Assembly: GCA_041288095.1 (NCBI GenBank)
Contig: JBGGMJ010000028.1
Location: 1-14,025 of the forward strand
Reading direction: 5' to 3'
From: Myxococcota bacterium
Lineage (GTDB): Bacteria; Myxococcota; XYA12-FULL-58-9; JALHOP01
Length of the DNA stretch: 14,025 nt
The position numbers and the translations under genes are program-made. The notes beneath the pieces are model-generated. The model ran no database searches, had not been told where the DNA came from, and was given only the letters and a program-made list of their open reading frames with translations. Shown here one piece after another: positions 1,144 through 13,249 of this stretch. Within the stretch, counting starts at the first letter, position 1, and each line of letters starts with the position of its first letter.

Positions 1144-2919
<1,776 letters not shown>

Positions 2920-3050
2920 GGGCGCATGCAGTCTCACCGAGGTGGAAACGACGCGCAATGATTTGCACGTTGGGCAATTTACACCACAGACGCTCTAACC
3001 CGCTGACACCAGGGCGGAAATTGCGACTTCAGAGAATATTTCCGGAAAAA

Positions 3051-3121: not shown

Positions 3122-3137
3122 TGGTTTGAGCCTTGCA
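3122..3137 (+). promoter_or_regulatory. Sigma54 (-24/-12) promoter for the di-heme gene
   Basis: TGGTTTGAGCCTTGCA has exact GG-N10-GC spacing and a perfect TTGCA; the -24 CAC is degenerate. It lies just upstream of RBS AGGAG (3156-3160) and ATG 3166. Confidence 0.65.
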
Positions 3138-3165
3138 ACGGACGGGTCACACCCCAGGAGAACCA

Positions 3166-4401
3166 ATGCACCACGAGCGAAGTTTGCTAAATGCCGGATT
3201 CCTCGTCGCTGCTGCGACCGCGCTTGCCGCTTGCGGCAATTCGTCGGTCACCGGCCCCAGCGAGCCGGAACCCACAGCGACCGTCGATGACGTTCTTGGC
3301 GGCGACTCGGCTGAGGTCGCGGCATCGCTCGGTATCAGCGAGCAGGAGCTGCGCGGTCTCGACCGCGACAAGATCTCCGAGATGCTGAAGATCCTCCAGG
3401 GTGGCTTGATCTTCCACTTCGAGCGCTTCCGCGGCAACGGTCGTACTTGCGCCACCTGCCACCGCGGCGCCGCCTTCGACCTCAAGCCCGAGGACGTGCA
3501 AGAGCTCCACGCTCGCCGTCCCAACGACCCGTTGTTCCTCCACGACGGTAGCGATGACGGCCTCGGTAACGGGACCACGCGCATCCAACAGAACGCGACG
3601 ATTCGCGTCGACTTCAACCTGCCGGCGAACGTGACCATCGTCGAAAACCCGTCGCTTCGACAGGTGACGTTGATGCGCGCGGTGCCCTCGTTGCTCAACG
3701 TCCCGGCGCTCGAGACCATCTTCATGCTCGACGGTCGCCAGCCGACGCTGCAGGCCCAGGCCCTCGGCGCGGTCAACGATCACGCCCAAGCAGAGCGCCA
3801 GCCGACGGCCGGCGAGCTCGACGCGATTGCGATCTTCCAGGAGAAGGATCCCCACTTCTTCAGCTCGCCGGTCCTGCGTGAGTTCGCCAACGGCGGTCCG
3901 GCGCCGGTGCTGCCCGAGGGCAATACGGACAGTGAGCGCCGCGGTCGCGCCTTCTTCGAGCCCGACACCGCCTGCGGCTCGTGCCACGGTGGCCCGATGT
4001 TGAACGAGACCACGGCCGGTAACATCGGCACCAAGCTCGGCTTCGGCAATGGCGTGCGCGTCCGCAACATTCGCGTGCCGATCGACAACGTCGCCGGCTT
4101 GCCGCAGTGGACGTATCGCTGCGTGTCCCCGACCGGCGCCGTCACGACGTCGAAGACCGCGGACCCTGGCCTCGTCCTGACCAACGGTAACTGCGGCGAC
4201 ATGAACCACTTCCGTATCTCAACGCTTTGGGGCATCAACGAAAGTGCGCCGTATTTCCACAACAATTCGGCCAAGACGCTGGAAGAGGTCATGGATCAGT
4301 ACGACCGCTTCTTCAACATCCTGGTCACGGCGCGTGGTCTGGATATTCGTCTGACGCGTGAGCAGCGGGCTGACATCCTGGCCTATATGCGCTTGCTCTA
4401 A
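3166..4401 (+). CDS. Di-heme cytochrome c lipoprotein, bacterial cytochrome c peroxidase/MauG superfamily
   Basis: Lipobox LAAC (Cys23), two CxxCH motifs (CATCH 3448-3462, CGSCH 3973-3987), PSLLN..LDGR..LQAQA, RGRAFF, FRISTLWGI..SAPYFHNNSAKTLEEV, LT.EQRADILAYM. RBS AGGAG supports ATG 3166 rather than TTG 3133. Confidence 0.88.
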   Translation: MHHERSLLNAGFLVAAATALAACGNSSVTGPSEPEPTATVDDVLGGDSAEVAASLGISEQELRGLDRDKISEMLKILQGGLIFHFERFRGNGRTCATCHRGAAFDLKPEDVQELHARRPNDPLFLHDGSDDGLGNGTTRIQQNATIRVDFNLPANVTIVENPSLRQVTLMRAVPSLLNVPALETIFMLDGRQPTLQAQALGAVNDHAQAERQPTAGELDAIAIFQEKDPHFFSSPVLREFANGGPAPVLPEGNTDSERRGRAFFEPDTACGSCHGGPMLNETTAGNIGTKLGFGNGVRVRNIRVPIDNVAGLPQWTYRCVSPTGAVTTSKTADPGLVLTNGNCGDMNHFRISTLWGINESAPYFHNNSAKTLEEVMDQYDRFFNILVTARGLDIRLTREQRADILAYMRLL

Positions 4402-4427
4402 GAAGAAATCGTCTCCGGGGTTCCCAC

Positions 4428-4484
4428 ACACGGTGCCGGCAGTGCCCTCCAGGCTGGGAGGGCGCTTGCCGGCACCCGTGTTTT
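4428..4484 (+). terminator. Long GC-rich hairpin followed by a short T run; probable intrinsic terminator
   Basis: ACACGGTGCCGGCAGTGCCCTCC pairs with GGAGGGCGCTTGCCGGCACCCGTGT (a few bulges and GU pairs) and runs into TTTT, just after the stop at 4401. Confidence 0.7.
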
Positions 4485-4570
4485 CACGCTCTGTCGTTCG
4501 AATAACGCTTGCCGTATCGGTTTTCGATCATGTATCTAGCCCGCTCCTTTTTTTGGGAAACGGTAAGACG

Positions 4571-5050
4571 ATGTTGATGACCGAATACGAGACCACGATG
4601 GTGGTGCGCCCCGACATCAGCGGCGACGTCATCGAAGCTACGCTCGACCGCGTGCGCGACGCCGTGAAGAAGAGCGGCGGCAAGCTCGTCGCCCTGAATC
4701 ACTGGGGCAAGAAGAAGCTCGCGTACCCGATCGCCAAGCACACCCGCGGCATTTACGTGCAGGCGCACTACCTCGGACAGGGCGGCCTCGTCGCCGAGGT
4801 CGAGCGCAACCTGCGCATTTCGGACAGCGTCCTGCGCTTCCTGACCGTGAAGGTCAGCGACCATGTGACCGCCGACGAGCGCCAAGAGAAGGAATACGTA
4901 CGCCCGACCTACGAAGCGCAAGCCGACGAGGTCGATGACGAGCCGATGTTCGGCCGTGACGACCGCCGCGACCGCGAGCGTGATCGGGATGATCGAGACG
5001 ACGTCGAAGTCGGCGGACGCGACGACGAGAGTGCGGACTACAAGGACTAA
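4571..5050 (+). CDS. rpsF: 30S ribosomal protein S6 with long charged C-terminal tail
   Basis: EYETTMVVRPD, GGK....HWGKKKLAYPIAK...GIY, EVERNLRISDSVLRFLTVK. Start is ATG 4571 or ATG 4577; the ORF track upstream extension from 4358 is not credible. Confidence 0.97.
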   Translation: MLMTEYETTMVVRPDISGDVIEATLDRVRDAVKKSGGKLVALNHWGKKKLAYPIAKHTRGIYVQAHYLGQGGLVAEVERNLRISDSVLRFLTVKVSDHVTADERQEKEYVRPTYEAQADEVDDEPMFGRDDRRDRERDRDDRDDVEVGGRDDESADYKD

Positions 5051-5053
5051 GCC

Positions 5054-5338
5054 ATGTCAGACGATAAGTTCGAGCGTTATGGTGACCGCGATGGCGGAGA
5101 TGAGCGTGGCGATGGCGGGCCGGGTTTCCGCCGCCGCAAGGTGTCGCGCCTCTACACCGAGATGGGTGGCAAGGTCGATTACCGCGATCCGCAGACCCTG
5201 AAGTACTTCGTGACCGAGCGTGGCAAGGTCGTTCCGCGCCGCATCAGCAAGGTCTCCGCGAAGGACCAGCGCAAGATTACCCGCGCTGTGAAGCGCGCCC
5301 GCTCTCTCGGGTTGATGCCCTTCCAAATCACCACCTAG
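5054..5338 (+). CDS. rpsR: 30S ribosomal protein S18 (no zinc-binding cysteines)
   Basis: FRRRK..., VDYRD..TLKYFVTERGKVVPRRIS..SAKDQR.ITRAVKRARSLGLMPF. Confidence 0.98.
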   Translation: MSDDKFERYGDRDGGDERGDGGPGFRRRKVSRLYTEMGGKVDYRDPQTLKYFVTERGKVVPRRISKVSAKDQRKITRAVKRARSLGLMPFQITT

Positions 5339-5355
5339 GGTGAAGTGAGCTCGTT

Positions 5356-5802
5356 ATGCAGGTGATCCTCCTAGAAGACATGCCCAACCTGGGCGGCATC
5401 GGTGAGCAGGTGAACGCGCGCGACGGTTACGCGCGTAACTATCTCTTCCCCAACAAGCTCGCCGTCCCGGCGTCGACCAACAACGCCAAGCGTTTGGCGC
5501 ACGAGAAGCGCGTCGCCAACTTCCGCCTCGCCAAGGCGAAGGCCGAGGCCGAAGGCGTCGCCAAGAAGCTTTCCGCGACCGCGGTCTCGATTGCCCGCAA
5601 GGTGGGCGAGCAGAACAAGCTGTTCGGCTCGGTCAGCGCGCACGACGTCGAGCAAGCGCTCCTGGAAAAGGGCGTCAAGGTCGACCGTCGCAAGATCGAT
5701 GTCGGCGAGCCCATCCGTCAGGTTGGCGAGTATGACGTCAAGATCCGGCTGGTGGGCGGCGTGGCCGCGACCATCAAGGTCAGCGTCGTCGCCGAAGCCT
5801 GA
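5356..5802 (+). CDS. rplI: 50S ribosomal protein L9
   Basis: MQVILLEDMPNLG..GE.V..RDGYARNYLFP..LA, KLFGSVS, VDRRKI....PIRQVGEY. Confidence 0.98.
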   Translation: MQVILLEDMPNLGGIGEQVNARDGYARNYLFPNKLAVPASTNNAKRLAHEKRVANFRLAKAKAEAEGVAKKLSATAVSIARKVGEQNKLFGSVSAHDVEQALLEKGVKVDRRKIDVGEPIRQVGEYDVKIRLVGGVAATIKVSVVAEA

Positions 5803-6010: not shown

Positions 6011-8263
6011 ATGCAGACGCATAAGGAAGTTGCCGCGAAGGGAGTGCTCGCTCGAGCACTCGCTGGAAACCTCGCGGAAGATTTCGACCCAAAAAACGTC
6101 GATCCCAAGGGCGCGGCACACCTGATCCTCGATCTGTCGCGTGTCAGCGGCGTTTCGTCGTTCGGCGTGCGCGAATGGGTCCGAGCGGTGCGCGAGTCCG
6201 CGGAGAAGACGCGCATCTGGTACGTGGCGGCCTCGCCGCGCATGACCGATCAGTTCAACATGATCGCCGGCTTCGACGGCGGCGGCACGTTGCTGAGCTT
6301 CTACGGCAACTACCTGTGCCCCGAGTGCAACAACGAGACGCCGGCCATGTTCGACGTCCAGCTCGACGCCGCCAGCTTCACGTCGGACAACGCACCCGTT
6401 CGTCAGTGCCGCATCTGCGGCCGTCACGCCGAGCTCGATGACATTCCCGAGGCGCTCTTCGAGTACGCCGGCTCGCACCCCGTAAGCGAGGTCGCGCCCG
6501 ACGTAGCCGCCTTCTTGAAGGGCCCGCAGTACTGGGCCGAGGTGGCCCCCGGCGATCGCTTCGCCATTCGCAAGCTGCGCGCCGCCGACGCGACCACTTA
6601 CGACATCCACGGCATCATCGACGTTGGCTTCTCGCTCGACTCCGTGAGCAGCGAGCTCGGCGACGTCGTGTCGCTGTCGTTACCGCACGTCCAGCACATC
6701 GATCCGACCTCGGGGACGGCACGCTGGATCGAGGTGGTAGGCAAGCTCAAGCGCGATCGTAAGGTCAGGCTGGTGGCCGTGCCGCCGGTGTTCCTGCGCC
6801 GCGTGATGGACTCGTCCGCGATGGTGGCGGGCTGCGAGATCTCGTCGGTCGTCTATCCGACCAAGTGCGCGCAGTGCCAATACAAGGCTCTGCTCCAGAT
6901 CGACCCGCGCAACGCGTTCGACCAGACGACGCTGGCGCGCACCAAGTGCCGCAACTGCAATGGCGGACCGTTGTTGACGCGTTGCGATTTCAGCGACATC
7001 ACCGCGATGCACAACTTCGTGCTCCGCTCGCGCAGCGCGAGCGTCGGTAGGCCCGAGCATGCCGCGCCCCGCGAGGCGCCGAGCGAGCGGCAAGAGTCGG
7101 ATTTGCCGGCGTTCCTCGCCCAGAGCTCGCCGTCTCGCTACGAGCCGCTCTGCAAGATTGGCGAAGGCGGCATGTCGGATGTCTACCTGGTGCGCCAGCA
7201 CGGCGCCGTGGGCTTCCGCCGTCTCGTCGTCATCAAGGTCATCCGCTCCGAGTTCCTCACGGACGATCGCCTGGTGCGCATGTTCATCGACGAAGCTCGC
7301 CTCGCGGCGCGCCTCGACCATCCGAACATCATCCGCGTCCACGACCTTGGCCGCGGTGGCGGTGCGTTCTTCATGGTCATGGACTTCCTCCATGGCCGCA
7401 GCGTCAGCGAAGCCCTGTTCCAGACAGCCAAGCAAAACGTGACCTGGCCCCCGGCGCTGGCCGCGACCATCGTCGCCGACCTTTGCTCGGCGCTCGCGCG
7501 AGCGCACATCCCGGACGCATCGGGCAAGGCGCTGGTGCACCGCGACGTGACCCCGGCGAACGTCATTCTCCGCTTCGACGGACTCGTGAAGCTCATCGAC
7601 TTCGGTCTCGCGGGCTACCAGCACTTCGCCAAGGATGCGAGCCGCGCCGGTCAGGTCGTGGGCAACTTCGCTTACCTCGCGCCCGAGGCGTTGAACGAGC
7701 AAGAAGCCACGCCGCAGCTCGACATCTGGGGCGCCGGCCTCATCCTCGCGTGCCTCGCGCTCGGCCGTCATCCGTTCAAGCGGGCAACGTCCGAAGAGAC
7801 GATCATCGCCATTCTTCGGCAGCCGCCGAACCTCACCGGGCTCCCGAAGGAGCTGCTGCCCATCGTCGAGAAGAGCCTCCAGAAGGATCCGAAGCTGCGC
7901 TATGCCAGCATCGCCGACATGGGCAACGAGCTTCGCGAGGTCATCGTCGAGATGACGCGTGACCGGAAGAGCTCGGGCTCCGGCTCGGGCTTGTGGCGAT
8001 GGCTCGGACGCAAGAGCGAGGATGCGGAAAAGCCGCTCACGCTCGAGTCCATGTTGCGACGGTTGTTCTCGCACCAGATCCGTATCGAGAACGAGTTCTC
8101 GCGCCGCGCTGGCGCGCCTCAGTTCATCGATGCGTTGCTTGACGCTTCTCCGAAGGATGTGGCCCGCCTCTTCCGCACGTTGCATGTGGACGACGCGACG
8201 CCGACGGCATCGGCCTCGGTACCGCCGCCTAGTGATGTGCGATCACTCGGCGCACTGACGTAG
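6011..8263 (+). CDS. Cytoplasmic Hanks-type Ser/Thr protein kinase with two N-terminal STAS-like/Cys4-ribbon modules
   Basis: Kinase motifs IGEGGMS.VY, VVIK, FIDEA, HPNI, HRDVTPAN, DFG, YLAPE and DIW at about 7139-7945. N-terminus has LDLSRVSGVSSFGVREW + CPEC-x26-CRIC, then a diverged copy + CAQC-x23-CRNC. No transmembrane helix seen. Confidence 0.92.
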   Translation: MQTHKEVAAKGVLARALAGNLAEDFDPKNVDPKGAAHLILDLSRVSGVSSFGVREWVRAVRESAEKTRIWYVAASPRMTDQFNMIAGFDGGGTLLSFYGNYLCPECNNETPAMFDVQLDAASFTSDNAPVRQCRICGRHAELDDIPEALFEYAGSHPVSEVAPDVAAFLKGPQYWAEVAPGDRFAIRKLRAADATTYDIHGIIDVGFSLDSVSSELGDVVSLSLPHVQHIDPTSGTARWIEVVGKLKRDRKVRLVAVPPVFLRRVMDSSAMVAGCEISSVVYPTKCAQCQYKALLQIDPRNAFDQTTLARTKCRNCNGGPLLTRCDFSDITAMHNFVLRSRSASVGRPEHAAPREAPSERQESDLPAFLAQSSPSRYEPLCKIGEGGMSDVYLVRQHGAVGFRRLVVIKVIRSEFLTDDRLVRMFIDEARLAARLDHPNIIRVHDLGRGGGAFFMVMDFLHGRSVSEALFQTAKQNVTWPPALAATIVADLCSALARAHIPDASGKALVHRDVTPANVILRFDGLVKLIDFGLAGYQHFAKDASRAGQVVGNFAYLAPEALNEQEATPQLDIWGAGLILACLALGRHPFKRATSEETIIAILRQPPNLTGLPKELLPIVEKSLQKDPKLRYASIADMGNELREVIVEMTRDRKSSGSGSGLWRWLGRKSEDAEKPLTLESMLRRLFSHQIRIENEFSRRAGAPQFIDALLDASPKDVARLFRTLHVDDATPTASASVPPPSDVRSLGALT

Positions 8264-8333
8264 CCAGCAGCACGAGCTTGATTTTCGATGTGATAGAAAG
8301 AGCCGGACCGGGCAGTCTCAGTCGGATGCGAAT

Positions 8334-9293
8334 GTGAGTAACGGCAATATCTTACTGGTTTGGGGCGACAACAGGGATCGCCGAGCTCTCTACAAGGCGC
8401 TCGCGACGACAGGCGCCGGTGTGTCGTTCGCCAACGACCCGAGCCAGCTGCGCGCGGGGCTCGAGCAGTGCCGCCTGGTGGTGATGGACTACGATGCCGT
8501 CCGCGATACGGCGCGCGAAGTCCTCCAACATCTGTCGCTGCAACCCTCGCCGCCGCCGGTGCTCGTCGTCACCTCGAGCAACCACAAGGCCGATCTCATC
8601 GAGCTCTTCGGACACGCCGCGCTCACCAATCTGGTCGCCAAGAACGCCGACTTCAATCTCAACGAGCTCATCATCACGGCGCAGAAGGTCATTCGGAACG
8701 ACATCTTCGGGCTCGACAAGTACCTGAGCTGGGGCGTGCAGGCTTACCAGTACAACATCACCAGCTCAGCCGGGCGCTTCGGGCCCATGAAGGACCTCGA
8801 GAGCTACTTGCACGCCATCGGCGCCAACCGCCGTCTCGCCGCGCTCGCCCACAGCGTCGCCGACGAGCTGCTGATGAACGCCATCTACAACGCGCCGGCG
8901 GATCCACAGGGCAATCCGAAATACGCCAGCCGCTCACGTACCGAGCAAGTCGAATTGCTGCCCGACGAAACAGTCTCGTTTTCGTTCGCCTGTGACGGCC
9001 AGTATCTCGGGCTGTGCGTCGCCGATCGCTTCGGCCGTCTCGAGACCGACACCGTGCGCAACTACCTGCGCAAGTGCTTTCTGCAGGGCGAAAATCAGAT
9101 CGACACCAAAGATGGTGGCGCCGGCCTGGGACTCTATTACATTTTCCAGTCTCTCAATCACTTCATCATCAACGTCGCGCGCGGCAAGCGCACCGAGCTG
9201 ATCGGACTCATGGACATCTCGGGCAGCTTCAAGGACTTCGCGCAGCGCACCAAGTCTCTTCATCTATTCATAGCTGGGGGAAGGCAGCAGTGA
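8334..9293 (+). CDS. Atypical receiver domain fused to an RsbW/SpoIIAB-like GHKL (HATPase_c-type) domain
   Basis: N-terminal REC-like pattern (ILLVWGD, LVVMDYD, VLVVTS, LVAK). C-terminal N-box DELLMNAIYN, VADRFG and G-box GGAGLGLYYI, with no H-box/DHp. GTG start with weak RBS. Confidence 0.75.
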   Translation: MSNGNILLVWGDNRDRRALYKALATTGAGVSFANDPSQLRAGLEQCRLVVMDYDAVRDTAREVLQHLSLQPSPPPVLVVTSSNHKADLIELFGHAALTNLVAKNADFNLNELIITAQKVIRNDIFGLDKYLSWGVQAYQYNITSSAGRFGPMKDLESYLHAIGANRRLAALAHSVADELLMNAIYNAPADPQGNPKYASRSRTEQVELLPDETVSFSFACDGQYLGLCVADRFGRLETDTVRNYLRKCFLQGENQIDTKDGGAGLGLYYIFQSLNHFIINVARGKRTELIGLMDISGSFKDFAQRTKSLHLFIAGGRQQ

Positions 9294-9760
9294 CCGCTGG
9301 GCTCAAGTGGAAGGTCGACCGGGGCTCGGAGGCGATAGTCGTCGCGTTCGCCGGATCCATCGACGAAGACGCGCGCCTCGACACGCTCACCGGTGAGCTC
9401 TCGGGCGCACCACGCCTGCGTTTCGACATGGGCGGCATCACGCGCATCAACTCGTGCGGCGTACGCGAGTGGGTGAACTTCATGCGGGCGATTCCGCCGG
9501 GAACGCGCGCGACGCTCGAAAATTGCCCGTCGGTCGTGGTCGCGCAGGTCAATATGATCAGCAACTTCAGCGGTCCGGCGCGCGTTGCGTCCGTGCGCGT
9601 CCCCTACGTCTGTAAGGACTGCGGCTTCGACGCCGAGCTGCCGATGGACACGCCTCCCGGCGCGCGTCCGGTGCTACCCGCGATGCAATGCCCGCGCTGC
9701 AAGAAGAGCGAGTTCATTTTCGACGACCTCGCGGATAGTTACTTCGCGTTCTTGACCTAA
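9290..9760 (+). CDS. Stand-alone STAS-like (anti-anti-sigma-like) protein with C-terminal Cys4 ribbon
   Basis: GTG start overlaps the upstream TGA (GTGA, 9290-9293), with purine-rich GGGGGAAGG upstream. VAFAGSIDE, LRFDMGGITRINSCGVREW, CKDC-x22-CPRC; 156 aa. The ORF track start at 9014 overlaps the upstream gene and is rejected. Confidence 0.82.
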   Translation: MTAGLKWKVDRGSEAIVVAFAGSIDEDARLDTLTGELSGAPRLRFDMGGITRINSCGVREWVNFMRAIPPGTRATLENCPSVVVAQVNMISNFSGPARVASVRVPYVCKDCGFDAELPMDTPPGARPVLPAMQCPRCKKSEFIFDDLADSYFAFLT

Positions 9761-9779
9761 CCCCGGGAGCCCCTGGCCT

Positions 9780-11114
9780 TTGACTACGGTGAGCACAGGA
9801 GTCGACGTCGTGCGTGGCAGCCTGCGTGCCGCCATCGCCCAGACCGTGCTCGACCAGCTCGTCGATGCCGCCGTGGTAGTCGATCGTGACCTGAAACCGA
9901 TCGCTTGGAACGCTCGCTACCTCCAGCAGCTCGGGTTGCGACAGCAGCAGTTCATGCGGCGCTTGGAGTCGGCTTCACCGCGCTGCTGCGATCTCCTGCG
10001 CCTCGAGGTTTGTCGTGAGGGTTGCCTCGCGCAACGGGTGCTCACGCAGCGCAAGCCGGTGCGCGTCGACGAGATCGCGGGCTGGGTCGAGACCATGCCC
10101 GACGACAAGATGACGTTCATCGTGAACGCCTCGCCGGTCGTCGACGAGCAGGGCGAGATCGTCGGCACGCTCGAGGTGTATCGCGACGTCACCGGAGAGG
10201 CGCGCATCCAGGCGCGCTACAAGGCGCTCCTCGAGGAAGAGCGCAAACGTTCGGTCTCGCTCGAAGAGCAAGTGCGGCTGCGCACGGAACAGCTGCAGCA
10301 GAGCATCAATCAGCTCGAGCAAACCCGCGACCGCTTGATCCAGGCGGAGAAGCTCTCGTCGCTCGGCCAACTCGTCGCCGGTGTCGCGCACGAGATCAAC
10401 AATCCCACGAGCTTCATCTACGGCAACATGCGCTTCCTCTCGGAGCACGCGACCGCGTTGCTCAAGATGCTCGACTTCGCGACCGCTGAAGCGAACCTCG
10501 CTCCGACGGCGCGCGAAGAGCTCCACCGTCTCATGACCGAGCTCGAGATCGACTACGTGCGCGACGATCTCTTCAAGATCATCGACGCGATCTCGACCGG
10601 CGCCGAGCGCATCACCGCCATCGTCCGCGACCTGCGCCGTTACGTTCACAACGGCTCCGCCGACGAACGCGCAACCGTCGATCTGGCGCGTTGCCTCGAC
10701 ATGGCGCTCTCCTTCTTCAAGTTCGAGATCCGCGGCATCCACGGCCTCGAGCGCGCATTCGATCCGGCGACGCCGAAGGTCGTGGGCAATGAAGGTCAGC
10801 TCAGCCAGGTGGTCATCAACCTGGTCGCCAACTCCGTGCACGCCGTCGGCCCAGAAGGGCGCATCCGTGTCGAGCTGCGCCCGCACGACAACGGCGCCTG
10901 TATCGTCGTCCAGGACAACGGGGCCGGCATCCCCGAAGAGCACTTGCTCAAGGTCTTCGACCCATTCTTCACGACCAAGCCGGTGGGCGAGGGGACCGGC
11001 ATGGGCCTCGCCATCGCTCATTCCATCGTCGACCGCCACGGCGGGACCATCGGCGTGACCAGCAAGGTGGGCGCCGGGACGACATTCACCGTTTGGCTTC
11101 CGGCGGCGCCCTGA
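9780..11114 (+). CDS. Soluble PAS-domain sensor histidine kinase (NtrB-like core)
   Basis: PAS ([37 protein letters not shown]), coiled coil, H-box [10 protein letters not shown]-box [34 protein letters not shown]. Start is TTG 9780 or GTG 9810 (AGGAG at 9797-9801). Confidence 0.94.
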
Positions 11115-11143: not shown

Positions 11144-11578
11144 GTGGCGGAAGCAGCGCGCGAGAGAAGGACGTTGAGCGTCCTGTGCGTCGACGATGAG
11201 GCACAGAATCTCGACGCGATCCGACGCGCTTTTCGCAAGAACACCGACCTCAAGGTGCAGTCCGCCGAGTCGAGCGCCGCGGCGATGCAGCTCGTTCGCG
11301 CCGAGAAGTTCGATCTCTTCCTCGTCGACTATTCGATGGCCGGGGTAAACGGCGTCGAGTTCATCGAGCAGGCGAAGGTGCTGGCGCCGAACGCCGTCTT
11401 CATCATGCTGACCGGTTATCCCGAGCTCAAGAAGGTCGTCGACGCGCATGCCCGCGGATTGGTGGACGGCATTCTCGGCAAGCCGTGGAGCGCCGAGGAG
11501 CTGACGCTAACGGTGACGCAAGCGCGCTCCATCCTCCACCTGCGGGCGATCCGTCTGGGTGTGGCCGAGCGCGGCTGA
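11144..11578 (+). CDS. Single-domain response regulator
   Basis: VLCVDDE, FLVDYSMAGVNG (phospho-Asp), MLTGY, GKPW; no output domain. AGGAG at 11133-11137 precedes the GTG. Confidence 0.93.
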   Translation: MAEAARERRTLSVLCVDDEAQNLDAIRRAFRKNTDLKVQSAESSAAAMQLVRAEKFDLFLVDYSMAGVNGVEFIEQAKVLAPNAVFIMLTGYPELKKVVDAHARGLVDGILGKPWSAEELTLTVTQARSILHLRAIRLGVAERG

Positions 11579-13249
11579 TCAGGGAGCGCTGTCGGCGACC
11601 TTCACCGCGACGAGGCTGTCGGGCTGCAGCAGGCCCTCGGGATCATCGACGGTGACCACGAGCGACTCCCCATCGCCTCGGATCGCGCAAGCAAGACTCG
11701 GGTTGTCGACCAAGGTGCAGGTCGCCGTCGCGGCGGGGAAGCTCACGGCGCCGGCCGGCACACGTGTGGTGAGCTTGGCGCGCGAGGCGAGAGTGGCGAC
11801 AGCTTGGTTCGCCTCGACCGTCGTGCCGACCTCGACCAGCGACGCGATCTCGCCGGCCGCTTCGGCGGTCACCTCGACCCAACGTACCGTGCGCGCGGTG
11901 CGCTCGTAGGCGTCGCGCGCCTGCGCGAGGAAATAGCGGTAGACCTCGTCGTAGCGGGCGCTCTTTTGAATGCTCTCGTAGCGCTTCTGCGCCCGTGAAA
12001 GCTTGGCATAGCTCTTGGCGTCCAAGAGCGCGCCGACGACCGCTCCTGCGGACACGCGATCGCGGACGGCGACATCGACACGCGCCCACGTGCCCGCGCT
12101 CGGCGCGGTGACCGTGCCGCCTTCGCTCGGCTCGAAGCGCGCCTGCACGACGACGGTCGGGTTGGCGCGAGGCTGCGCGCTGGGCGGCGCCACTTGCGGC
12201 ACCACCGGTGCTCCCGCTTGCTTCTCGAGGCCGGCCAGCTGAGCGGCGACGCGTTGCTCGGCGCGTATCACGATGGCCGCGGCCGCGGCGCTGACGGCGA
12301 CGACGATGGCGGCGGCCACGAAGACGATGCGGCGGTGACCGCTCGGGGCGACGGTCGGGATGATCGGGTCGATCTTGGTCGGCCGCGGCTCGGGCGCCTG
12401 CGCCTCGGGCTCGAGCTCATCGATGTCGAAAGCAATCGACTCGGCCCGCGGCGCGCGCGGGCGCCGCTCGAGCGCGACCCGCGCTTGCTCGTTGTCGGGA
12501 TTGATCTCCAGCGCGGCTTCGAGATAGCCGGCGACTCCCTGGTCGTTGCCGGCACGTTCCACGGTGAGCGCGGAGCGTAGCAGGTGGCGCTCCTCCTCGC
12601 TGTCCGCGGCGGCGAGCGCCGCCCTCAAGTCGGCGCTCTTCTCGGGCGCCCCCGACGAGTCGTCCGCGAGGAAACCGTAGCCTCGCAGCTCGCGCATGAA
12701 CGAACGGACGAGCTCGGGCGTCGCTTGCAAGCCGAGCTGCTGCGCGCGCTGCGCGATGGCGGTCAGGCTGCGGTGGCCATCCATGAGCTGCGCGATGCGC
12801 CATTCGACGCGGTAGATGGGGAACGCCGTCGCCGTGCCGGCGCGACGCACACTGACCGTGTCGGCGGTCTCCTTGACGATGGTCAGGTCGCTCCGTAATA
12901 GCGGAGCGGTGGGGAGATTGGCGACGCCGATCATGCGGGCGCCGGCGCCCACGCTCACGGAACCGACTTGGGTCACGGCGCCGGGCTTCGGGCCTACGTG
13001 GGTCGCCGCGACCGGCCATGGTCCGACGTGAGTCTCGGCCACCGGCGCCTGCCCGACGTAGGTCTCCGCCACCTGGAACGGCTCGGCGATGGTCACGTCG
13101 CGCGACGGCGCGTCTTCGCTGTCGGTCGGCGGCGGCGGCGGGCGCGAGATCACCGTGCGCTCGACACCGTGCTCGCCGGTCTGCCGGCCCTGTAGCGGCG
13201 GCGGCGCTTCCCAAGGGTTACGGGGCGGTCTATCGGGCGGCTTGGCCAT
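11579..13249 (-). CDS. HlyD/membrane-fusion-like protein with Pro-rich repeat N-terminus, PqqD/RRE-like domain, TPR-like motif and one TM helix
   Basis: PLLRSDL..V.VR....AF.I..VEWRIAQLMDGHRSL..I.....VRSFMRELRGYGFL (PqqD-like); YLEAALEINPDNEQA (TPR-like); TM IVFVAAAIVVAVSAAAAAIVI; two lipoyl-like halves VTAPSAG..V.V.DRV.AG and VTAEAAGEI..VEVG..V flanking a helical hairpin. Confidence 0.7.
   Translation of the reverse strand: MAKPPDRPPRNPWEAPPPLQGRQTGEHGVERTVISRPPPPPTDSEDAPSRDVTIAEPFQVAETYVGQAPVAETHVGPWPVAATHVGPKPGAVTQVGSVSVGAGARMIGVANLPTAPLLRSDLTIVKETADTVSVRRAGTATAFPIYRVEWRIAQLMDGHRSLTAIAQRAQQLGLQATPELVRSFMRELRGYGFLADDSSGAPEKSADLRAALAAADSEEERHLLRSALTVERAGNDQGVAGYLEAALEINPDNEQARVALERRPRAPRAESIAFDIDELEPEAQAPEPRPTKIDPIIPTVAPSGHRRIVFVAAAIVVAVSAAAAAIVIRAEQRVAAQLAGLEKQAGAPVVPQVAPPSAQPRANPTVVVQARFEPSEGGTVTAPSAGTWARVDVAVRDRVSAGAVVGALLDAKSYAKLSRAQKRYESIQKSARYDEVYRYFLAQARDAYERTARTVRWVEVTAEAAGEIASLVEVGTTVEANQAVATLASRAKLTTRVPAGAVSFPAATATCTLVDNPSLACAIRGDGESLVVTVDDPEGLLQPDSLVAVKVADSAP
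12953..13072 (-). repeat. Four imperfect 30-nt (10-aa) tandem repeats
   Basis: VAETYVGQAP / VAETHVGPWP / VAATHVGPKP / GAVTQVGSVS. Confidence 0.85.

Follow-up and report, generated by a model that had tools for sequence, protein, structure and literature searches.

A STAS-fold module with a predicted Cys4 zinc ribbon, free and in tandem within a Hanks-type kinase, as a candidate partner-switching component in Myxococcota

Why does one short stretch of bacterial DNA encode the same small cysteine-bearing domain three times, twice at the N-terminus of a Hanks-type Ser/Thr kinase and once as a free protein of 156 amino acids (aa)? The question is raised by positions 6,011 to 9,760 of a 14,025-nucleotide stretch from Myxococcota bacterium (assembly GCA_041288095.1, contig JBGGMJ010000028.1, forward strand), which we call the window in its full length. 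An earlier note, made from the letters alone, had read the domain as STAS-like with a Cys4 ribbon; the neighbouring gene for an RsbW/SpoIIAB-like kinase and the wider partner-switching context were missing from it. Partner switching is best known from the control of sigma factors, with few cases that control diguanylate cyclases. Our analysis makes it somewhat better than an even bet that the module is a STAS switch domain with a C-terminal Cys4 ribbon, at work in partner switching without a sigma factor. The genes and modules that carry the argument are as follows.

6011..8263, plus strand: Hanks-type Ser/Thr kinase of 750 aa with two predicted N-terminal STAS-zinc-ribbon modules, from the translated open reading frame (ORF)
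6038..6466, plus strand: kinase module 1, aa 10-152, matched by the profile of free homologues (independent E-value, i-E, 7.7e-26); S50 at nt 6158-6160, C103/C106 at nt 6317-6328, C133/C136 at nt 6407-6418
6557..7015, plus strand: kinase module 2, profile match aa 183-318 and alignment to about aa 335 (i-E 2.8e-13); C286/C289 at nt 6866-6877, C313/C316 at nt 6947-6958
7142..7906, plus strand: kinase catalytic domain, aa 378-632 (Pfam PF00069 Pkinase, E 7e-38)
8334..9293, plus strand: 319-aa protein with a receiver-like domain (about aa 5-121) and a SpoIIAB/RsbW-fold GHKL domain (about aa 138-313), from predicted structure and Foldseek
9290..9760, plus strand: free STAS-zinc-ribbon protein of 156 aa, from ORF, profile and predicted structure; S55 at nt 9452-9454, C108/C111 at nt 9611-9622, C134/C137 at nt 9689-9700

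Since modules 1 and 2 of the kinase match each other only weakly by BLASTP (E 0.007), we built a profile from 25 free homologues, the window's own protein excluded, and scanned the window with it in six frames. The free copy scored 1.6e-59, the two kinase modules were recovered at the values given above, and beyond these three copies nothing scored better than E 1. The window thus holds three module copies, well beyond chance, as the earlier note had claimed (once free, twice fused to the kinase); its coordinates agree with the ORFs and the profile matches, its motifs are present, and all six CxxC motifs lie where it had placed them. BLASTP aligned kinase aa 16-152 with aa 19-154 of the free protein (41/142 identical, 29%, E 1e-13). 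GVREW is identical between the free protein and module 1, which also keeps the SpoIIAA-type Ser; the Ser motif is degenerate in module 2 (IDPTSG), where the Cys4 set is retained. A full-length alignment of the three copies with the family left G22, G57, W61, C108, C111 and C134 invariant.

The free protein was modelled with AF2 from a 26-sequence alignment (pLDDT 94.7, pTM 0.87). Up to residue ~108 the order of elements in the model is that of a STAS domain; beyond it come two more strands and a short helix, along with both CxxC knuckles. Foldseek against the PDB returned STAS antagonists for all of the top 10 matches (E 1.7e-5 to 1.4e-4, probability 1.00), with SpoIIAA the best (1tid_D, E 1.7e-5) and RsfB (8ih8_B), RsbV (6m36_D), 4hyl_B and TM1442 (1vc1_A) also among them; the STAS domains of SLC26/SulP and MlaB proteins were matched as well. 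These alignments span ~100-107 columns, the core minus the ribbon. The predicted structure thus describes the module as a STAS fold plus a C-terminal CxxC...CxxC ribbon, in line with the STAS-like assignment of the earlier note, for which a Foldseek comparison with SpoIIAA and RsbV had been suggested. The best whole-module profile matches in the PDB were C2H2 zinc-finger arrays (E 8.6e-7), which we rejected as spurious because nothing but the recurring CxxC spacing was aligned.

In the profile alignments with TM1442, RsbV and 4hyl, riNSCGVREW, the motif conserved most strongly in the family, falls on yMDS(a/t)GLg, which places S55 on the Ser of the latter motif; we take this Ser to be the residue phosphorylated by RsbW and SpoIIAB. 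The CxxC knuckles stand 22-26 residues apart, each beside predicted strands. In a DSSP assignment of the model, C108/C111 have strands 101-108 and 114-120 on either side, and C134/C137 precede strand 141-144. No Pfam ribbon model reached its cut-off in the module. Below threshold, Zn_ribbon_8 was matched in 9/26 homologues (best E 1.5e-4), and matches to rubredoxin-type Pfam models were at chance level only (Zn_ribbon_LapB E 0.5 in the window's free protein; RUBY_RBDX in 4/26 homologues, best E 0.042). The sequence points to a structural zinc site as the likeliest nature of the ribbon, which would most simply serve to widen the interaction surface of the module.

Conservation was counted in the 150 best representatives of the family, which hold 229 modules.

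Free copies (n=53): C108/C111/C134/C137 kept in 53, 52, 52 and 50; Ser55 kept in 53
Module 1 (n=88): C108/C111/C134/C137 kept in 88, 88, 88 and 87; Ser55 kept in 86
Module 2 (n=88): C108/C111/C134/C137 kept in 87, 83, 85 and 84; Ser55 kept in 10

Each of the four cysteines is therefore kept in at least 94% of modules across all three classes, which bears out the claim that these residues are conserved. The Ser is invariant in free copies with or without a GHKL neighbour. At its position module 2 most often has P (35 of 88), followed by E (14), D (8) and A (7), and module 2 has mostly lost the C-terminal FDD..YFAF motif as well as W61. We then calculated a FastTree phylogeny of 117 rows (35/53 free copies, all 9 longer single-module proteins, both modules of 35/88 tandems and the window's three), in which module 2 forms one clade (support 99) and free copies together with single-module proteins form one supported set (98). 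The three copies of the window therefore represent three old paralogous classes and are not recent copies of one another.

The module belongs to a large family. A 28-sequence profile searched against 1.84 billion representative proteins matched 4965 representative clusters at E<=0.001; a stricter limit of E<=1e-10 left 3856, and one of E<=1e-30 left 1049. The best 150 comprise 62 single-module proteins, 53 of them <=200 aa, and 88 with two modules in tandem. We scanned 48 of the 150, picked for unusual or typical lengths, for Pfam domain partners and found Pkinase in 12/48, C- or N-terminal to the modules, FIST domains in 7/48 and PDZ in 4/48; many tandem proteins of 700-750 aa have no kinase and give weak PDZ signals only. 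The nearest ESM Atlas clusters consist of Myxococcota and Bdellovibrionota proteins that are listed as hypothetical and share no Pfam family, and the structural matches in the Atlas include a 489-member kinase cluster with the same N-terminal fold and a 72-member PilZ cluster. The phyla that carry the module are known for very large kinomes. A further homologue search with the N-terminus of the kinase gave 9 matches only.

No Pfam or NCBIfam cut-off was reached by kinase aa 1-370, by the 319-aa protein or by the 156-aa protein. By sequence, then, the module defines a large, unnamed STAS subfamily for which Pfam and NCBIfam hold no model, so that the distinct subfamily of the earlier note stands; a profile and a list of domain partners, which it had put forward as a check, gave the Pkinase, FIST and PDZ fusions. 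It had also allowed that the domain might already be functionally described. We found no description of the module in open-access papers and preprints, to which the search was confined, and the main text of a bacterial kinase atlas preprint does not mention STAS, zinc or FIST. None of the papers found there describes the subfamily with its Cys4 ribbon, be it as a tandem or as a free paralogue, or a receiver-GHKL protein as its partner.

Who might act on the Ser? The GTG start of the free protein (9290) overlaps the stop of the upstream gene by 4 nt (GTGA), with GGGGGAAGG ahead of it, and as read from the sequence the two genes are translationally coupled. The upstream 319-aa protein has 207 homologues at E<=0.001; among the best 120 of these, a few are named anti-sigma regulatory factor (Ser/Thr protein kinase) or CheY-like. 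Across 33 homologues E178 and N182 of the N box, D231 and G234 of the G1 box, and G261-G262-A263-G264-G266 of the G2 box are invariant, and Pfam matched HATPase_c_2 in 13/33 (best E 1.2e-6) and Response_reg in 10/33. In its AF2 model (pLDDT 90.3), the N-terminal receiver fold resembles RssB, LvrC and DivK by Foldseek, and the C-terminal domain has its matches in SpoIIAB (1l0o_A, E 9.1e-6, TM by target 0.77), RsbW (6m37_C, 0.76) and SiaB (6kko_B). On this evidence the protein is a candidate both to bind the STAS modules and to act on them as a serine kinase, and the module is probably a phosphorylatable partner of the serine kinase encoded by the adjacent gene.

The gene context of relatives was examined in loci (numbered L001 onwards) found by scanning a species-level genome set for the motif NSCGVREW; 80 loci, nearly all of them from Myxococcota metagenome-assembled genomes (MAGs), were kept from 144 relatives. 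Two of them (L001, L002) share the gene order of the window. By tblastn the 80 loci contain 128 module matches, namely 80 free, 37 C-terminally extended (by 115-185 aa), 8 kinase-fused and 3 other. Of the 77 loci with room for it, 19 have a receiver-GHKL gene immediately ahead of the free module, and in 13/19 of these the two genes share 4 or 1 nt where stop and start meet. Directly downstream, a homologous PAS protein is encoded in 59/76 cases with room, 51 of these being full-length histidine kinases; counted over all 80 free modules, the downstream gene is a PAS histidine kinase in 52, a PAS-GGDEF protein in 7, another PAS protein in 3 and none of these in 18. All seven PAS-GGDEF loci (7/7) have the receiver-GHKL gene upstream. 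The extended form (~300 aa) has a PAS-only gene within 2.6 kb in 35/36 cases. A SpoIIE/PP2C-like stretch is found in 56/80 loci, within 6.5 kb of the free module in 54 of these. Forty HAMP-SpoIIE-like genes form one syntenic class, which lies upstream of the free module in the same orientation, the median distance being 3.6 kb, and at least three architectures of SpoIIE-type phosphatase occur in related loci, confirmed by Pfam as HAMP-SpoIIE (L003, L025, L010), kinase-AAA-TPR-GAF-SpoIIE (L037, L070) and histidine kinase-receiver-SpoIIE (L063, L078).

Several loci merit a description of their own. In L075 (4664-12741) the whole system has expanded locally, with three Hanks kinases that each bear tandem modules, two receiver-GHKL genes and one free module inside ~10 kb of a single MAG contig. 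L068 (3883-10450) has four module-bearing genes, among them a 557-aa single-module protein, a 693-aa tandem without kinase and a 151-aa free protein, and a thioredoxin/AhpC-like gene (8660-9901) between module genes that is the sole redox-type neighbour among 10 annotated loci. The Kofleriaceae-type loci L025 (3085-12191) and L010 (4562-12170) share a conserved cluster in the order extended module, PAS protein, HAMP-SpoIIE, TPR protein, signal-peptide protein of ~309 aa, free module, PAS histidine kinase and response regulator. Three loci labelled Bifidobacterium breve (L052), Fibrobacteria (L057) and Omnitrophota (L061) have the order receiver-GHKL, free module, PAS as in the Myxococcota-type loci, and could be mis-binned contigs or real occurrences beyond Myxococcota. 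PilZ-domain proteins adjoin module genes in L003 (4609-6645, minus strand) and L075 (12854-13942, plus strand); together with the Atlas PilZ cluster, this hints at a link to cyclic di-GMP (c-di-GMP) besides the PAS-GGDEF neighbours.

We postulate a circuit in which the receiver-GHKL protein would bind the free protein and phosphorylate it at S55, and might likewise phosphorylate kinase module 1 at S50, with a SpoIIE-type phosphatase encoded elsewhere in the genome removing the phosphate. The phosphorylation state would then set the partner of the module, be it the GHKL protein, the downstream PAS histidine kinase or the catalytic part of the Hanks kinase. The earlier note's idea that the free copy mimics the regulatory domain of the kinase is plausible from the sequences, in that the Ser and its surrounding motifs are common to the free copy and module 1 and absent from module 2, but the copies stem from old paralogous classes. 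In a sharper version of this idea, module 1 and the free protein would be alternative clients that vie for one GHKL partner, while the Ser-less module 2 would be a non-phosphorylatable structural or docking copy.

A number of observations weigh against this partner-switching circuit. At the level of sequence, support for STAS is weak yet consistent: Pfam STAS models gave no match at E<=0.01 in the free protein or the kinase N-terminus of the window; among 26 homologues STAS_2 was matched in 9/26 and STAS in 8/26, all under the cut-offs (best E 0.0017); and the PDB profile E-values for STAS entries are weak at 0.012-0.8 (0.012-0.14 for TM1442 and RsbV). The invariant Ser, at the N-terminus of a helix, could be purely structural, and zinc binding is a prediction from sequence. 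Among the 17 window ORFs scanned with Pfam there is no sigma-70-family gene, and in the 14-kb window Pfam detected neither a PP2C/SpoIIE gene nor a sigma/anti-sigma pair. The GHKL gene is not adjacent in 58/77 free modules with room, and in 41/77 the upstream gene encodes a signal-peptide protein unrelated to the GHKL family. In a tree of 81 free modules the window copy falls in a supported group of 25, 20 of them with a GHKL neighbour, and the other large subfamily has the signal-peptide protein upstream in place of GHKL; the linkage is confined to one subfamily and possibly of single origin, so that the 19 GHKL-linked loci do not count as independent. Lastly, the phospho-acceptor Asp of the receiver domain is present in the window protein and unconserved across the 33-homologue family, which makes control by the neighbouring histidine kinase doubtful. 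The ~309-aa gene upstream in the 41 loci had been tried as a divergent receiver-GHKL homologue because its length equals that of the receiver-GHKL protein; it was rejected, with an hhalign probability of 0.35% and a signal-peptide-like N-terminus.

An alternative is that the module is a phosphorylation-independent adaptor. It would serve a dedicated PAS domain, that of the downstream histidine kinase, of a GGDEF enzyme or of a stand-alone PAS protein, as constitutive partner or as ligand sensor, and the GHKL protein would be an accessory of one subfamily only. PAS is indeed the commonest neighbour (59/76 free modules with room and 35/36 of the extended form, against 19/77 for GHKL), and the STAS domains of SLC26/SulP and MlaB, both among the Foldseek matches, work without phosphorylation. 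We nevertheless regard the adaptor as unlikely, given that the Ser is invariant even in free copies that have no GHKL neighbour, and that genes for SpoIIE-type phosphatases cluster with the GHKL-less copies, as the 40 HAMP-SpoIIE-like genes illustrate.

The kinase fusion itself suggests another possibility, in which the free protein, or module 1 of the kinase, would be a substrate of the Hanks kinase itself instead of the GHKL protein, and the tandem modules would be autoinhibitory or dimerising. The 12/48 Pkinase fusions and the 489-member Atlas cluster would fit, and precedents can be cited in PknD acting on the anti-anti-sigma homologue Rv0516c (from the portion of PMC1847690 available) and in the fusions of COG1366 (STAS) to kinases in Sorangium cellulosum (likewise from part of PMC2887360). 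Yet a module-bearing kinase is rarely found near free modules (8 kinase-fused vs 80 free in the 80 loci), many tandem proteins are kinase-less and carry FIST, a weak PDZ signal or no Pfam match instead, and the conserved Ser is the site that GHKL kinases use, with a GHKL gene coupled to the free gene. On balance we find this assignment of the kinase improbable.

Redox-controlled anti-sigma and antagonist proteins exist, such as RsrA and M. tuberculosis RsfA. That the Cys4 set acts here as a thiol or metal switch, with oxidation or the loss or exchange of Zn or Fe unfolding the ribbon and altering partner choice, as the earlier note had leaned towards, is nonetheless quite unlikely: the cysteines are the best-conserved feature in all classes, even in module 2 without its Ser and W61, and L068 has its thioredoxin/AhpC-like gene among module genes, but CxxC...CxxC ribbons are usually structural, a fold-stabilising zinc site predicts equally strong Cys conservation, no redox enzyme was seen as a regular neighbour in the 10 annotated loci, and the rubredoxin-type matches are at chance level. 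A sensing role of the ribbon is possible, and nothing in the analysis favours it. We give similarly little credence to a dual-input switch, in which one module would read both Ser phosphorylation and a thiol or metal signal at the Cys4 site; its outputs in Myxococcota and Bdellovibrionota would be Hanks kinases, PAS histidine kinases, c-di-GMP enzymes, FIST and PDZ proteins, and free copies would titrate the very GHKL dimer for which the kinases' own tandem modules are a docking site.

Returning to the sigma-less partner switch, the module resembles SpoIIAA, RsbV and RsfB in its fold, in the position of its Ser motif, in the adjacent gene for a SpoIIAB/RsbW-fold GHKL protein and in the SpoIIE-type phosphatases of related loci. 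It differs from them in the ~50-aa Cys4 ribbon and conserved FDD..YFAF tail that follow the last core strand, in scoring below the cut-offs of the Pfam STAS models (PF01740, PF13466) and in having no sigma factor nearby. Unlike in SpoIIAB/RsbW systems, the GHKL protein here has an N-terminal receiver-like domain, and the module also occurs as fused tandems. By analogy, the functionally closest known systems would be the sigma-less partner switches of diguanylate cyclases; SypE-SypA is a further partner switch without a sigma factor. In the available parts of PMC8457831 and PMC5085249, STAS or STAS-like switch proteins are reported to control diguanylate cyclases in the pairs HsbA-HsbD, BgrV-BgrR and SiaC-SiaD, with an RsbW-like kinase and a PP2C phosphatase setting the phosphorylation of the switch in HptB-HsbR-HsbA-HsbD, BgrSTUWV-BgrR and SiaABCD. 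The likeness lies in the seven related loci ordered receiver-GHKL, module, PAS-GGDEF and in the match of SiaB to the upstream protein. In contrast to the present module, HsbA, BgrV and SiaC have no zinc ribbon; the commonest neighbour here is a PAS histidine kinase, not a cyclase, and the module is also found within Hanks kinases.

Fusion of STAS to a kinase is not new as such, since Treuner-Lange (2010) reported COG1366 (STAS) to be expanded in Sorangium cellulosum with fusions to eukaryotic-like kinases (PMC2887360, in the part available). Those fusions are compared here by description only, and in that part of the text a Cys4 ribbon, a tandem and a free paralogue go unmentioned (PMC2887360). 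PknD of M. tuberculosis, a Hanks kinase, and the anti-anti-sigma homologue Rv0516c on which it acts are separate proteins, with no ribbon and no GHKL partner in the available part of that account (PMC1847690). The ribbon itself recalls the Cys4 zinc ribbons of TFIIB, TFIIS and Zn_ribbon_8 in its two CxxC knuckles, except that it is here an appendage of a STAS core and neither a stand-alone nor a nucleic-acid-binding module. What we describe is a known domain in a large variant that has no name as yet, probably inside a known type of circuit. The variant is connected with Hanks-type kinases and PAS histidine kinases, with GGDEF, FIST and PDZ proteins, and with PilZ by Atlas structural match alone. 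If the proposal is true, GHKL/PP2C switching would be linked, in a testable manner, to eukaryotic-like kinase signalling in myxobacteria, and thousands of proteins labelled hypothetical would gain a name and a profile.

The remaining features of the neighbourhood complete the five-gene stretch that holds these modules.

4358-5802, plus strand: rpsF, rpsR and rplI, preceding the five-gene stretch
9780..11114, plus strand: PAS histidine kinase (HATPase_c E 7.4e-30, PAS_4 E 3.9e-10)
11144..11578, plus strand: single-domain response regulator, after the PAS histidine kinase (Response_reg E 2.9e-19)

The Hanks-type kinase has GAGGAG ahead of its ATG, and its translation contains the HRD, DFG and APE motifs. 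The PAS histidine kinase is a candidate output or input partner of the free module, and the order of histidine kinase and response regulator recurs in L001, L002, L025 and L010. An Rfam scan of the window gave zero matches. The rpsF ORF (4358-5050, plus strand) is listed as 230 aa, with the S6 domain at aa 76-165 only and a long C-terminal tail; its true start is probably downstream of the listed GTG. Upstream of it, 3133-4401 (plus strand) encodes a di-haem cytochrome c peroxidase/MauG-like protein that scores slightly under the Pfam cut-offs and has a counterpart of 69% identity in L001. A sigma-54 activator is encoded at 1144-2958 (minus strand), in which two matches to receiver domains accompany an AAA+ domain and a helix-turn-helix of the Fis type; the L001 copy is 87% identical. 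The plus-strand ORFs 555-1277, 1298-1891 and 1925-2590 that lie over it have no Pfam match and are probably not genes. At the other end of the window, a 556-aa ORF (11579-13249, minus strand) has weak HlyD/lipoyl-like matches (TIGR03794 E 8.6e-6, far under cut-off), a proline-rich N-terminus and a hydrophobic stretch at ~aa 320-340, and coincides with the GC peak of the window (0.70-0.72 vs 0.62-0.65 elsewhere).

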